Shown here in pieces: positions 1,259-19,200 of a DNA stretch of 64,000 bases; the first letter of the stretch is position 1, and every line of letters begins with the position of its first letter. Under the pieces are notes generated by a model. It searched no databases and was not told the DNA's origin. It saw only the letters and a list, made by a program, of their open reading frames with translations. This DNA comes from Chiloscyllium plagiosum (Eukaryota): NCBI RefSeq assembly GCF_004010195.1, contig NC_057756.1:3897232-3961231 (forward strand), read 5' to 3'. The position numbers and the translations under genes are program-made.

Positions 1259-1294
1259 ATTTGGACAATTCATACGAAAAACTCAAAAAGCAGG
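1259..1294 (+). CDS. Micro-exon 1, 36 nt, phase 1-1, (D)[11 protein letters not shown]
   Basis: ctgtcctttgtgtattAG|ATTTGG...AGCAGG|GTAAGC. Confidence 0.88.
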
Positions 1295-4200
1295 GTAAGC
1301 AGAACATTATACGTGTCTGTTTCGCAAAACAAAATTCCAAGAATTGTTACTTTCCTCATGAAATGTGCAACCTAGCGTTGAAGTACTCAATTTCCCACTG
1401 ACAGCATAAATTTGAAGGAGGTCTATAAGACTGAAACGCACGTTGTGTTTGTTTCTTGGTAAAGCAATCTGATTAGAAATGTAGGAGAAAGTGAGAACTG
1501 CAGATGCTGGAAGTCAGAGTTGAAAATGTGTTGCTGAAAAAGCGCAGCAAGTCAGGTGTCGTCTAGGTAGCTGTGGAGTCGGTCGGTTTATAGTAAATGT
1601 CCGTGTTGATTCGGTCGCCCGAGATAGAAATGGAGAGGTCTAGGAAGGGGAGGGAGGAGTCTAAAACGGTCCAGGTAAATTTGAAGTCGGGGTGGAAGGT
1701 GTTAGTAAAGTGGATGAACTGTTCAACCTCTTCGTGGGAGCACGAGGCAGCGCGGATACAGTTATCGATGTAACGGAGGAAAAGGTGGGGGCTGGTGCCA
1801 GTGTAGCTGCGGAAGATGGACTGTTCCACATGTCCTACGAAGAGGCAGGCATAGCTGGGGCCCATGCGCTTGCCCATTGCGACTCCTTTGGTTTGGAGGA
1901 AGTGGGAGGATTGGAAAGAGAAGTTGATCAGTGTTCCTGGTGGCGATTGGAGGGTCGGGGCTCAAGGATTCCTGGTGGCGATTAGAAATGTAGTCTTTCG
2001 AGTCATGTGGCTCACTAAACAAAGCAGGTTATTTTTTCATCTATGCCGAATTTTAAACAGCAGCTGTAATTATCAAATTGTCATGCAAAAGTTATGTGCA
2101 GTTCAACATCAGTTTATGAAAGCTAATGTTTAGTCTTAATTTACTGATCAGTCTCTCCAGAAGTGTGCGGGCAAATTGAGCAATTTTGTTTTTCAGCTGG
2201 CACATTTCTTTGAGTTGTGATTGTCCTCCTCGTGGAAACAAACTGCTAGCATTTTCTTTCAAGTGTTTTGAAGGTGCTTTCTTACTTGACACATTATCTT
2301 TTCTAGATTTTATCGATCTTGTGTGACAACAATGAAGTCGTTTATTTTTCAACTTTTGCCAATCATGTCGCCTCAGAATTTGATGTGAAGGTGCGGGCAT
2401 TGGATGGAGGTGGAAAAAATTATAAATCACCCAAAAGTCGGTTATAATCCAAAACAGGGTTGAGTGTATTGTGCTCGAAAAGCACAACAGGACAGACAGC
2501 ATTTGAAGTGCAGGGGAATCAACGTTTCTAGCAAATGTCATCCATCAGGAATAAGGTTGTGAGTCATGCGGTTGGTGAGGTAAATGGGAAGGGAGTGGAG
2601 CTGTGGGAAGTTAGCTTAGTGTGCGATAGGTAGATGGAGGTGTGGGTAATGTTGATAGCTCAGAATGGAAAGTGGCATGATAGGTTTTCAAGAACATGGA
2701 CAGCTAGGACAGGTCATGAGGGAGGAGCCGTTTTGTAAGGTTGGAATTAAGATAAAATGGAGAAGGGGAAATGAGGAAACTGGTGAAATTCACATCGTCA
2801 CCATCGGGTTGGAGGTTCCCAATGCCGTAGATGAGGCGTTCCCCCTCCAGGCTTCAGGTGGTCATGGAGTAGTTATGGGTATGGTCCAAATAACCTGCTA
2901 AACTGTCACGTAGTGCTGTGTGATTTTCAACTTAGTCCACCTCGGAATTTAACGTTTGCTTTTAGCTATGTCATAAGTGGTTGTTCAGGAAGAGATGATC
3001 TCACCTAAGTACTTAGACCAAAGTGCTTGATTGTTTTCAGGAGAATGAAAAGAAAATTCCCGCTTGATGCATGTCATACTTTTATTAAGCACGCTACTTC
3101 AGACCTAATATACGATTTCCGTTATTTTCCTGAATTTTATGAATGCGCCACTTCCTCCATGGTTTGCATTGAGTTTTTAATAAATACGTTCTGTTAATTG
3201 TTTTACTGAATGAAAATGACACTTTGCAGCGTCAAAAGCTGAACTCCGTTGCAGAAATCTGTTTTTGAAGATACCCCCACTTTGTGCGGCTGTAGTTTTT
3301 TATTGTTGTACATGTTATCCCTTTATTGCTTCTCTCAGTGAGATGGCTCCAACGGGACCAGGAGTTGCTTCCTTGCTGAACCGTCGATAAACTGATTCTT
3401 AATGCACCTTCCCAGTCGACTCCAATTTTTCCTGATAGATTCGATGTTTATGCTTAAAATGTTCATATTTCTCGCATCTTGTCTGGATTTACATCGTGCA
3501 AGGCGTTGTGATTTTAAAGAATGTTCAAGTAAAGACTAATTTCCCTAAGTGCGACTTATTTGCATTAAGGTTCATTTGTTATCTCATCCTTCTAATCTTG
3601 GTTGCTGATATTGAATGGACCATTTTCCTTCAAATGTTTGTTTTTGCCCCCAAGGGTTTTAAGTTTGCCTTTACTCCAGAAAGTGAACATGCCTATTTGC
3701 TGTTGTTTTCATCATTGAATCAGTTCTGTTACTAGAGATCATCAACGTGAAATGCAATTACTTTGGTGTACAACCTGCTCCAATGACTCACTCGATCACG
3801 AGTGAACAAAAATCGATTTAGAATGTTGAAGTTTTCCAGCATATGACAGACTGTGTGACTAAAATGTAGACATTGTTTCTGACAGATTATTCTGACAGTC
3901 AACTGTCAGCTAATAGCACAAATATTTTGAATAACTCAGCCTTGACAGGATGTTCAAAATGAGTCGCAATAGCTAATCATCATGTTGAATATTTTGTTTC
4001 TATTATACAGCTATCATTCTCTTTCCACGTCGTGATACCCAGTAGCTGTAAACTAGCAGTAGATAAAAAATAAACGTATTAGTTTTAAACAACATTCTCT
4101 TAGTTACACGACCACAAGCAACTGCACATTTAACTGCAATTAAATGTTCACATTGAGGCATAAATGCTGCGGTGGTCTGAAAATCAAAACAAAACAAACG

Positions 4201-16200: not shown

Positions 16201-19200
16201 TGACAAGTGGCAAGACACAATCGCTTTTAGGCATTCAACCGTGTTAACATCATTGAAAACCCCCACTAACTTTATCCTGGGAGTTATCATTGACCAGAAA
16301 CCCAATGTATCACACCACATCAATCCAGGCGCTCCAAGAGCAGGTAGAAGTTAGGGATACTGTGGCGAGTAAGTTACCTCAGACTCCTCAAACCATGTCA
16401 ACTATCTAAAAGGCAGAAGTCGAGAGACTAATAGAATCCTCCATACTTACCTGAAGAATTGTATTCTGAACACACTTCAGAAACTTGAGAATGCACAGGA
16501 CAAGCAGTCCACTTGATTGGCACAGCATCCACATGCATTCACTCCCTCCATCTCACTGCTAAGCAGCAGTAGTGTGTACTATCTACAAGATATACTGTAA
16601 AAATTCAGCGAAGATCCTCAGACAGTACCTTACGACCACTTCCATCTGGAAGGACAAATTCTGCAGAAATATGGGAACACCAGCACTTTCAAGATCTTCT
16701 CCAAGATGCTCACCGTCCTGACCTGGAAATAATCCGATATATTTTCACTGTCCCTTGATCAATATCTCGGAATTTCCTCCTAGATGGCATTGTGGTGGAA
16801 CTTACAGTAGATGGGGTCCAGCTGTTAAAGAAAGCAGTTCACCACCATTTCTCATGGGAAACTCGGGACAGACAATAAGGTACAGTCAGGTAGCGCCCCC
16901 GTCTCTCAAATGAATAAAAAGTATCACAATAGATGTAAAGTCGATCTACGGAATAGCACTTGTAAAAACATCATTTCATATAAACGATTATTAAACAAAA
17001 CTTACATGTTGAACGACATTGGTCTTACATTTCTCCAGAACTGAAAAACTGCAAGACAACTAATCCAGGTGAGCCGTTGGAAATGGAGAACTGTCGTTGC
17101 ATTTGATATGAAATATTTAATAGTTTAACATATAGAAAACATCTTGCATTGTGCCCACAAAATCAGATGTACACGGATAATTAAATATACACGTCGATTT
17201 GAAGGTATATTTCCGGGACGTCAACTGCAAATTAATATTTTAATATTCTGCTCAAGTCAAAATCTATTTACTGCACTGAACTTGCGTAACACTGCCCAAC
17301 ATTTCTTTCCTCATGATTTCTATATCTTACTGTCACGATGTTGCACCTCCAGACTACTACCTTTTTTATGTCAGTGGCATTCATTTTAATTTCACTTCTT
17401 GTTGGGGTGCTGATGTAACTTCACTGTAATTATAGTATTTTTTCGTATCTGAAAAGTCCTATTGATATCACCACTTCACGATCGTTGTTTGAACAGTTGC
17501 ACAATTAGAATAATGGTACTGATTCTATAATGCAATTATTGGTAGAAAGAAAGTAAAGTCTGTTCCAGTAATTTATCAGTAAGGCATGACAACAATTTGT
17601 GGCAAACTATCAATTCGATAAACTTGCCCTCACTGAAAATGAGATCTCATAAACTGTCGTTTAAAAAAACAAACAACTAAGTTATTGAGGGCTCATTGTT
17701 AAATTTTGGCTCGAGAGTCAAGGCCCAAGCATTGATTTGTAGATTGTCTTAGATACAAGTGTTATTACAATGAAGATCTGTTGGCATGATGAAGTGAAGC
17801 AAACTGTGTGAGTTAAAGTGACAAGTGCACGTTGAGATTCAAAAATAACGTTCTGAGTATCCTGCAATCTTCATGACAAAGTATGTTTTAAAAATCCTTT
17901 ATTACAAAAAGTAATCATTGTTCAAAATCAAATGCAATTTCTGAGTGCACAGGATTTTTTTTCTTGCTTTCATCATCCAATTTATGGCAACTTCATTGAC
18001 AAACAAATAGTTGGCTTAAATGTGAACATGGCCTGCAAAAATGAGCGGATGACAAATTTCACCGAAGAACTATATTCTGCTGTATGTCCCATTGACCACA
18101 GTGATAGCAGACATTGAATAAATTGATTTGACTGCTAAAACGCTCAAGAAACGACAGACTTGATGCAAAATTTAACATTGCGGAATCCTGGCAGGCCAGT
18201 GAATTATCATTGCGTGTCCATTAACGTTTACATAATAAATGTTTTACAGTTTGTTGATTAAAAATGAACAGAATTAAGCAAATATTACAGTTTAATTGTG
18301 CTGACATTTACATAGAAAAGAATTGAAGCCAATTGTTAATTCACTCAGAGATTTATCATTTCCAAGAGGTCATTGATGAATATAATAATCAACATCAAAT
18401 AAGATGTATCATTTGAGATGGAGTTGGTTGCACAACATAAATATACCAAGATACTAGAATTCATTTAAAGGACATAATACTTGTTTTAAAGAGAGCAGTT
18501 ACGAAAATCATAGTCCAGTATCGATATTTGTATCATTGCAATACAATAACTGAACCCCTGTCTTCATCATCCTTAAATATTCGATGGATTTTGTGAGGCA
18601 GAAGTCGTGATTAAAATACCTAACAGTGAGTTCACAAAACCCAATTCAGGTTCTGCAACGTGTCATTCGATATGGAGAGAGGGTTCACAGGACTGTGAAT
18701 ACATTTATTGCCATGCTATCGAAAAGGGGTATTATGATTCAAACTATTGAGTGTTGTTTCTTTTTTATTGCAAGTTCGTACCAGCACAATTGCTTCAAAG
18801 ACTAACTTGGTGAAGAAATGCCGAACATGTCTGTGGATGAAGCAATTTCAGAAGGAACTTTACGGACTGAAGTAATAATCCAGTGGTAGATACACTTCCT
18901 CATTTAAAGCTGTTCGAGGTGACTATGTGAATGATGTGGTTGCCCGTGCAATATTCTTGCAAGAAGACAACGAGATGATAGGAATGCTTGTTGTGTATTT
19001 TAAAAGAAAATTCAATAACCATAAACATAAGTATTCCGAAATAGAGAAGCTGTGCTCGAGCTTTGTGTTAACGTTGTAGCACTGAAATGGCTGGAGATGT
19101 GCCTGAGACAATTATATATCCTGATCAAAATGGCATAAAGTCTTTTGGAGAAATTTACAGATAAAACTACCAAGCTAGTTAGGTGAAGCTAATCGTTGCA

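Follow-up and report, generated by a model that had tools for sequence, protein, structure and literature searches.

Seven tiny exons in a Chiloscyllium genome are likely part of a megabase array of heptad microexons that leads to a B30.2/SPRY exon

What kind of gene is assembled from exons of only 27 to 36 nucleotides (nt), each separated from the next by as much as 4 kilobases (kb) of intron? This question is raised by a 64,000-nt window, the whole stretch of DNA analyzed here, from the shark Chiloscyllium plagiosum (C47:3,897,232-3,961,231; contig NC_057756.1). A first-pass annotation made from the letters alone had called seven such exons at positions 1259-17068, and had read them as part of a coiled coil that grew by tandem duplication of a two-exon cassette. 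We find that the window lies wholly inside a far larger microexon array, and the exon signals in the DNA make it likely that the seven exons are a sliver of more than 200 microexons that splice into one giant transcript, whose last exon encodes a B30.2/SPRY domain.

Seven exons and the array around them

Examination of their splice signals and reading frames confirmed that the seven segments carry the splice signals of exons and share one open frame. All seven lie on the plus strand exactly where they had been placed, between an AG and a GT and in phase 1, with lengths of 36, 27, 36, 27, 36, 27 and 30 nt and introns of 3996, 563, 1989, 4130, 1164 and 3749 nt between them. The first exon (1259..1294; score 18.2) encodes 12 residues that run from heptad position g to d, and the second (5291..5317; score 10.8), which has a weak donor and an alternative acceptor at 5294, encodes nine residues from e to f. 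The third (5881..5916; score 15.3) places a Cys residue at d, and in the next three (7906..7932, 12063..12098 and 13263..13289; scores 20.1, 10.8 and 13.9) the other two frames are closed. The 30-nt seventh exon (17039..17068), which also has a Cys at d, brings the strict alternation of 36 and 27 nt to a close and scores 9.8, slightly below the cut of 10 used for our catalogue.

A generic splice-site scan that is blind to any seven-residue period recovered the same seven exons between 1259 and 17068, together with alternative acceptors on the same donors, and a trained model (described below) found no other plus-strand exon there. When the exons are joined, phase 1 is the only open frame, with no stops versus 8 and 4 in the other two. 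The residues claimed for positions 2, 9 and every seventh thereafter to 65 are also exact (L, L, L, L, S, L, M, L, L, L). This series corresponds to heptad position a, and eight of the nine Leu residues in the spliced peptide fall into one class modulo 7, a result that is equaled by only 1 of 200,000 shuffles (p ~5e-6). With two further exons from upstream of the window, the series extends to 13 heptads that carry 10 Leu, 2 Met and 1 Ser at a.

Our examination of the surroundings covered 1.81 megabases (Mb) around the window plus 200 kb at C47 2.20-2.40 Mb; genome-wide searches covered 3.56 Gb. An untrained scan of 1.65 Mb, which used only splice sites and ignored frame, returned 172 exons of 21, 27 or 36 nt on the plus strand versus 21 on the minus strand (48, 77 and 47 versus 5, 6 and 10 for the three lengths, respectively). 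The corresponding counts are 20 versus 10 at 24 nt and 15 versus 6 at 30 nt, and the remaining lengths between 15 and 45 nt differ little between strands. Of the 172 plus-strand exons, 9 contain a stop in the phase-1 frame, versus 105 and 86 in the two alternative frames.

A model trained on the plus strand then identified 200 exons there versus 10 on the minus strand, and rescue by likeness brought the catalogue to 204 exons, or 1,923 codons, of which 43 exons are 21 nt long and 142 are 27 or 36 nt long. At the score cut of 10, approximately 10 of these exons are expected to be false, weak true exons such as the seventh exon above are missed, and a few candidates have weak or GC donors. The median spacing between exons is 4.7 kb. 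Furthermore, 57 pairs of similar exons differ at 23, 15 and 30% of first, second and third codon positions, respectively, and this bias is as expected for coding DNA.

These exons are all in the same strand and phase, and the array extends on the plus strand from at least C47:2,237,173 to the stop codon of the SPRY exon, a distance of at least 2.34 Mb. The upstream 200-kb stretch yielded 19 plus-strand candidates, the first at 2,237,173, versus 5 on the minus strand, and a minus-strand paralogue that reaches at least 1.917 Mb bounds the 5′ end of the array. A genome-wide search with a 21-nt exon pattern gave 12 matches, all of them on the plus strand of C47 between 2.397 and 3.80 Mb, versus 1 for the control; eight of the 12 are in the stretches from which the pattern was drawn and four are outside them. 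A second 21-nt exon pattern was uninformative (6 matches versus 58 for its control). If the array is indeed one gene, that gene would easily be missed by annotation, since all coil exons found are shorter than 40 nt.

Both the coiled coil and the three-heptad block of one 36-nt and one 27-nt exon, as originally proposed, are supported at this larger scale. Downstream of -70 kb relative to the window, 107 exons are 27 or 36 nt long, and the two lengths alternate at 73 of their 106 junctions versus 52 in shuffles, none of which reaches 73 in 20,000 trials. In a 28-exon block, the autocorrelation of residue identity peaks at lag 21 (0.263, versus 0.155 at lag 7 and 0.126 at lag 14), and a profile of the 12+9-residue unit matches relatives of the gene (see below). 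However, the unit that was called exact holds only locally. The alternation seen here starts with two exons that precede the window and ends before the 30-nt exon, the resulting run of eight exons is as long as any strict run in the array, and 38 junctions join two 21-nt exons and 32 join two 27-nt exons.

The proposed history of tandem cassette duplication fared less evenly. Elsewhere in the array, 12 of the 204 exons have a copy that includes intron sequence. Eight of these are in the 21-nt block and are 65-73% alike, one pair of 36-nt exons 6.5 kb apart is 85-88% alike, and one pair, possibly an artefact, is 100% alike and lies between assembly gaps. The duplicate that is best preserved shows only its 36-nt exon in both copies. 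In contrast, the first six exons in the window are 36-56% alike, which is the background level (means of 40-43%), and their introns show no similarity, so that their duplication is either old or unproven. We also noted a segment that occurs at both +522,773 and +547,560 (window numbering continued), where copies 24.8 kb apart are 100% identical and have assembly gaps between them; this is probably an assembly artefact, or else a very recent duplication.

Skipping of exons in pairs, which would keep the heptads in register, had also been envisaged. In three relatives (12 rows), annotated isoforms show internal differences of 9 residues, of 9 and 6 residues, and of 9 and 7 residues, but never of 21. 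Paired skipping is therefore unsupported, because these single steps of 6, 7 or 9 residues presumably each reflect one exon. A study of macaque BTN3A likewise reports the skipping of a single heptad exon (PMC6790196).

The terminal B30.2/SPRY exon and its relatives

A phase-1 acceptor located 680,268 bases from the window start opens a 172-residue frame that runs to a stop codon. This terminal exon (C47:4,577,499-4,578,019, plus strand), which lies 680 kb past the window start, matches the SPRY profile PF00622 with an E value of 4.6e-18 and 65.9 bits (cut-off 26.3). Its best solved relatives by sequence are TRIM58, TRIM21, pyrin and BTN3A1, and it is approximately 23-29% identical to solved B30.2 structures. 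A predicted structure with a predicted local distance difference test (pLDDT) value of 80 aligns in Foldseek with template-modeling (TM) scores of about 0.7 to the B30.2 domains of TRIM and BTN proteins, with TRIM7, TRIM21, TRIM58, TRIM11 and BTN3 as the top matches. Both the sequence profile and the modeled beta-sandwich fold indicate that the domain belongs to the B30.2/SPRY superfamily. The microexons stop at this exon, as only one candidate occurs in the next 143 kb, and the 2.0 Mb examined revealed neither a second SPRY copy nor a remnant of one. A lectin, fibrinogen or C1q head had also been considered, and was dropped once the SPRY exon was found.

For window positions 5000-14000, no RNA data set was listed, and searches of RNA reads were confined to the SPRY exon and its 3′ flank. 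No reads were obtained from approximately 2% and 6% of two single-cell runs, which says nothing on expression, and a further RNA comparison at the same site returned one contig with two chance pieces of 18-21 nt.

At least four close paralogues of the SPRY exon are present in this genome (best 150 of 258 candidates scored). Two are on C47, at 994,524-995,036 on the plus strand (994.5 kb; 59% identical) and at 1,296,638-1,297,138 on the minus strand (1,296.6 kb; 42%), and two are on the minus strand of C37, at 22.23 Mb (40%) and 20.72 Mb (33%). Heptad-exon pattern matches span at least 466 and 620 kb upstream of the C47 paralogues, with 7 and 4 of 18 matches of one exon pattern there (control 4) and one more from another pattern, and thus these two paralogues appear to be further giant microexon genes. 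The two C37 paralogues are inside a region rich in butyrophilin and TRIM genes, and a noisy pattern with matches from C37 20.8 to 22.1 Mb hints at a further array, up to 1.4 Mb long. This 36-nt 5′ pattern has 73 matches versus 39 for its control, with none in the array described here and five near a C37 paralogue. Matches to the butyrophilin Ig-C profile PF22705 (Ig, immunoglobulin) number 37, with none on C47 (96 of 96 candidates scored) and 18 on C37, where the two paralogues sit among them; this distribution suggests that the family arose from the C37 butyrophilin/TRIM cluster.

Databases also contain relatives, named automatically as ‘TRIM39-like’, ‘TRIM69-like’ or ‘zinc-binding protein A33-like’, in chimaera, catshark, skate, electric ray, basking shark and bamboo shark. 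They include Callorhinchus XP_042192744.1 (1697 amino acids), Scyliorhinus XP_038671249.1 (945 amino acids) and XP_038672306.1, Narcine XP_069775384.1, Leucoraja XP_055510696.1 and Chiloscyllium GCC29436.1 (SPRY only). A Chiloscyllium punctatum protein is identical to one of the paralogous SPRY exons at all but 3 of 171 residues. We found no database record for the product of the gene described here, for which the best SPRY match is 59%. The clade proteins scanned with Pfam consist of coil and SPRY only, with no RING, B-box or Ig domain.

In a SPRY tree of 43 rows, which was rooted at its midpoint and built from domains cut with a profile of the family itself, 15 chondrichthyan domains form a clade on a long stem with 100/100 support, apart from butyrophilin and TRIM domains including those of sharks, although no one-clade test was applied. 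A second line of evidence comes from a 12+9 profile built from 34 adjacent 36+27 pairs. This profile matches the chimaera protein XP_042192744.1 seven times (versus 0.12 in shuffles), the 945-residue catshark protein five times, and the skate and electric ray proteins once each (0-0.14 in shuffles). There are no matches in a 460-residue catshark protein or in three TRIM controls. Taken together, the divergent SPRY sequence and the 12+9 unit, as read from these comparisons, indicate that the gene is a member of an unnamed chondrichthyan coil-plus-SPRY clade. The annotated members resemble it in having the same divergent SPRY domain, in most cases the 12+9 unit, and no RING or Ig domain, but none reaches the length catalogued in this array, which exceeds 1,900 residues.

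The N-terminal 369 residues of the chimaera protein had no match in the C. plagiosum genome and no usable match in Atlas. At residues ~905-1015 of the same protein, the coil is interrupted by 8-residue Pro/Thr/Asp repeats, a possible flexible or glycosylated hinge. We found no description of the gene or family in a literature search whose coverage was thin on subscription papers and lacked supplements, and so absence from print is not established.

The rod and where it might act

The catalogued exons follow the rules of a coiled coil in considerable detail. Residue 1 corresponds to heptad position g in 40 of 43 exons of 21 nt and in 46 of 57 exons of 36 nt, position a is hydrophobic in 70-82% and the first d in 74-86%. 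Within these two length classes, g is acidic in 93 of 100 exons, e is Lys or Arg in 51 and Gln in 24, and every Cys (30 of 30) is at d. The 27-nt exons vary in register: 24 begin at e, as they would behind a 36-nt exon, 17 at g and 16 at a. The rod is thus a mixture of heptad stretches and 18-residue stutters. By the rules established for coiled coils, a parallel dimer is favored when a is Leu or Asn, d is Leu, g is acidic and e is basic, and a Cys at d is able to bridge the two chains. The pattern therefore points to a parallel two-stranded coiled coil with putative d-d′ disulfides. A complex prediction for two copies of the skate relative, with a score of 0.01, speaks neither for nor against such pairing.

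Because a coiled coil rises by 0.15 nm per residue, the 204 exons, with ~1,920 residues, would form a rod of ~285 nm. Each exon is a multiple of three in length and in phase 1, and so any exon could be duplicated, lost or skipped without a frameshift. A 21-nt exon would add one heptad, a 36+27 pair three heptads, and a 27+27 pair 18 residues, or a stutter.

Our preferred reading, to which we assign roughly half of our belief, is that the giant transcript yields a parallel coiled-coil rod, probably secreted and disulfide-linked, that holds a pair of B30.2/SPRY heads at its C-terminal end. The rod would then act as an extended spacer or scaffold, with its paired SPRY heads presented for avid binding of a putative ligand, much as butyrophilin tails do at small scale, but outside the cell. 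Secretion is the best reading because Cys is confined to d and because two close relatives have signal-like starts. Specifically, the skate protein XP_055510696.1 and the chimaera protein XP_042192744.1, both in the subclade of this gene, have a short hydrophobic start with a best 11-mer hydropathy of 2.9 and only 1.5-1.6 over 19 residues, a profile that would fit a signal peptide rather than a membrane span. On these sequence features, secretion of the product is close to an even call.

Several observations weigh against parts of this reading. First, the joining of exons is read from DNA alone and no transcript links any two of them, and 0.5 Mb inside the array (C47 2.40-2.91 Mb) is outside the DNA examined. 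Second, the d layer of the run in the window is mostly polar or small (2 Leu, 2 Cys, 3 Ala and 6 polar or charged residues of 13), and Cys makes up ~3% of residues in this array versus 1.4-2.1% in relatives. Third, a hydrophobic start is missing from five of the seven relatives examined, although some of their models may be incomplete, and no BLAST alignment between the skate and chimaera starts is among the matches listed. N-glycosylation sequons are not enriched (5 versus 5.9 expected), no signal-peptide exon stood out in the DNA examined, and a signal pattern derived from the two relatives gave 36 matches versus 18 for its control genome-wide, with none on C47. Fourth, B30.2 domains are as a rule intracellular. 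Finally, one 36-nt exon that is otherwise unique occurs twice, 1.04 Mb apart and each time just ahead of a 21-nt block, and thus the array may be two genes.

This last arrangement, although doubtful, is the alternative that survives best. An upstream gene at ~C47 2.2-3.2 Mb, BG-like and without SPRY, would precede a downstream gene of 1.3 Mb at ~3.28-4.58 Mb that includes the window and SPRY exon. The order ‘27+36 pair, 21-nt block, 27/36-nt block’ does occur twice, the two copies of the 36-nt marker exon (C47 2,237,660 and 3,280,114) are the only ones genome-wide, and exon density drops between -692 and -617 kb relative to the window. However, the region between the supposed genes contains no SPRY remnant, no clear first exon and no assembly gap, strand and phase are the same throughout, and a megabase internal duplication explains the repeated order equally well. 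Under both arrangements, the window belongs to the portion, at least 1.3 Mb long, that continues to the SPRY exon. This alternative concerns gene boundaries and is compatible with any location in the cell.

We consider it rather unlikely that the product is instead a cytosolic coiled-coil and B30.2 protein, such as a RING-less TRIM-like or enterophilin-like adaptor in which Cys at d is only a small core residue. The B30.2 domains of TRIMs and butyrophilins, the families that supply its top structural matches, are intracellular, and the majority of relatives without a hydrophobic start and the unremarkable sequon count are as this alternative predicts. Yet the two nearest relatives for which N-termini are available carry the signal-like stretch, and no RING or B-box match was found in the 1.81 Mb (two TRIM queries match only the SPRY exon; the 5′ end is beyond) or in the clade proteins. 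PRY-SPRY TRIMs (TRIM7, 21, 39 and 58) also join a coiled coil to a C-terminal B30.2 domain, but no RING or B-box was found here in the DNA examined or in the clade proteins, and three TRIM controls do not match the 12+9 profile. Enterophilins and the secreted snake proteins ohanin/vespryn are leads only; as comparisons they offer a long zipper with B30.2 but without RING or Ig, and a precedent for B30.2 secretion.

Less probable still is a butyrophilin- or BG-type membrane protein, in which Ig and transmembrane exons upstream of C47 2.24 Mb would precede a giant cytoplasmic tail made of the rod and SPRY. The plan is familiar, in that butyrophilins have short heptad exons ahead of a B30.2 exon (PMC6790196, PMC8813856) and BG tails consist of 13-36 exons of 21 or 24 nt (PMC4046983). 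Two paralogues sit amid butyrophilin Ig-C matches on C37, the 5′ end of the array is beyond the DNA examined, and a V-set search covered the best 150 of 1319 candidates. On the other hand, Ig-C matches are absent from C47 and Ig domains from the clade proteins, the SPRY domain is outside the shark and ray butyrophilins in the tree, and Cys only at d better fits an oxidizing compartment. The 1.81 Mb has no plus-strand Ig pattern, and there is no convincing transmembrane exon inside the array, whose 5′ end is beyond the DNA examined. Chance splice-like matches or a dead gene, for which one can cite the few candidates with weak or GC donors and the fact that exons are known from DNA alone, are very improbable given the biases in strand, length, frame, codon position and Cys register, the intact SPRY frame, and annotated relatives with the 12+9 unit.

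Among the known systems, chicken BG is alike in that a long coiled coil is encoded by many tiny one-heptad exons and varies in length by exon gain and loss, but these exons number 13-36 and are 21 or 24 nt long, and BG has, in addition, an Ig-V domain, a transmembrane segment and a cytoplasmic tail, with no B30.2 (PMC4046983, PMC8813856). In contrast, this array has more than 200 exons including 27- and 36-nt classes, spans 2.3 Mb and ends in B30.2, with no Ig or transmembrane exon found in the DNA examined. A long 21/24-nt tail without B30.2 is thus not what we see, although the upstream half could by itself match that description, should it be a gene of its own. The BTN1, BTN2 and BTN3 butyrophilins likewise place a single B30.2 exon behind very short heptad exons, but they have only a few heptads, together with IgV, IgC and transmembrane domains (PMC6790196, PMC12841164). 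Heptad number varies among butyrophilins (PMC12841164), whose short heptad region plus B30.2 contrasts with the long BG heptad region that lacks it (PMC8813856). Our gene has short heptad exons and B30.2, but neither an IgC match nor a SPRY domain that groups with chondrichthyan butyrophilin B30.2. It appears to work like butyrophilin and BG tails, yet by Ig-C content and phylogeny it does not qualify as a butyrophilin. We regard it, from its exon and domain content, as a real and new variant of the plan of heptad microexons plus B30.2, much larger than first noted.

A bolder version of the preferred reading, the secreted rod, is offered tentatively. The locus may be a 2.3-Mb gene of 250-300 microexons, among the largest and most exon-rich of vertebrate genes, for a secreted, disulfide-stapled rod of at least 300 nm with B30.2 heads. 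It would be the largest member of a cartilaginous-fish family that moved a butyrophilin/TRIM tail outside the cell and tuned its reach exon by exon. If there is a single transcript, its span would be comparable to that of dystrophin and its exon number close to that of titin, with nearly all exons below 40 nt, and it would test how long runs of microexons are recognized and joined in cells other than neurons. Entire genes of megabase length can escape notice in shark genomes, as the closest database record here is the bare SPRY exon of a paralogue. The family, which is unstudied, has at least five genes in this genome and is present from chimaera to rays, and it bears on the evolution of butyrophilin, BG and TRIM tails and on whether B30.2 acts outside cells.

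Other features of the window and its flanks

The remainder of the window contains additional plus-strand exons. A 24-nt candidate at 22186..22209 (score 8.4) is less certain and is followed by a 30-nt candidate at 24062..24091 (12.8). An exon at 25237..25263 is 27 nt long, or 21 nt from a second acceptor at 25243 (scores 16.4 and 19.5), and exons of 36 and 27 nt follow at 26970..27005 (16.6) and 27839..27865 (14.8). The 27-nt exons at 42723..42749 (17.5) and 44129..44155 (18.9) form a recurring 27+27 pair of 18 residues that breaks the heptad; they are 81% and 89% alike to copies 897 and 928 kb upstream, respectively. A less certain 36-nt candidate from the splice scan at 50404..50439 (or 27 nt from 50413) has Cys at d and a weak donor, and a 36-nt exon lies at 63345..63380 (20.9). 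Weaker plus-strand candidates are at 48153-48188, 39816-39842, 53396-53422 and 41972-42004. The first of these has a GC donor and occupies the spot where a 36-nt exon comes after the 27+27 pair elsewhere, and it could thus be an exon in decay or one of the GC-AG type.

An assembly gap adjoins the window, in the 1,655 bases before it, and could hide an exon between 1259 and the 27-nt exon 15 kb upstream. Two intronic open reading frames, at 6071 and 13839, look signal- or membrane-like and were judged to be chance, as similar stretches occur throughout. Broken intronic open reading frames at ~31,000-38,000, 58,900-62,000, 54,900-56,300 and 1,500-1,960 are, by eye, presumably retroelement remnants; five repeat-like frames from the window were without a match in Pfam. 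Beyond the SPRY exon on its downstream side (window numbering continued), a 96-nt transmembrane-like phase-1 exon on the plus strand (+760,949-761,044) and an Ig-like exon on the minus strand (+793,937-794,236) presumably belong to neighboring cell-surface genes. Simple repeats (AGAT, GAA and TTTC) occupy window positions 1-77, 11,088-11,150 and 27,157-27,390.

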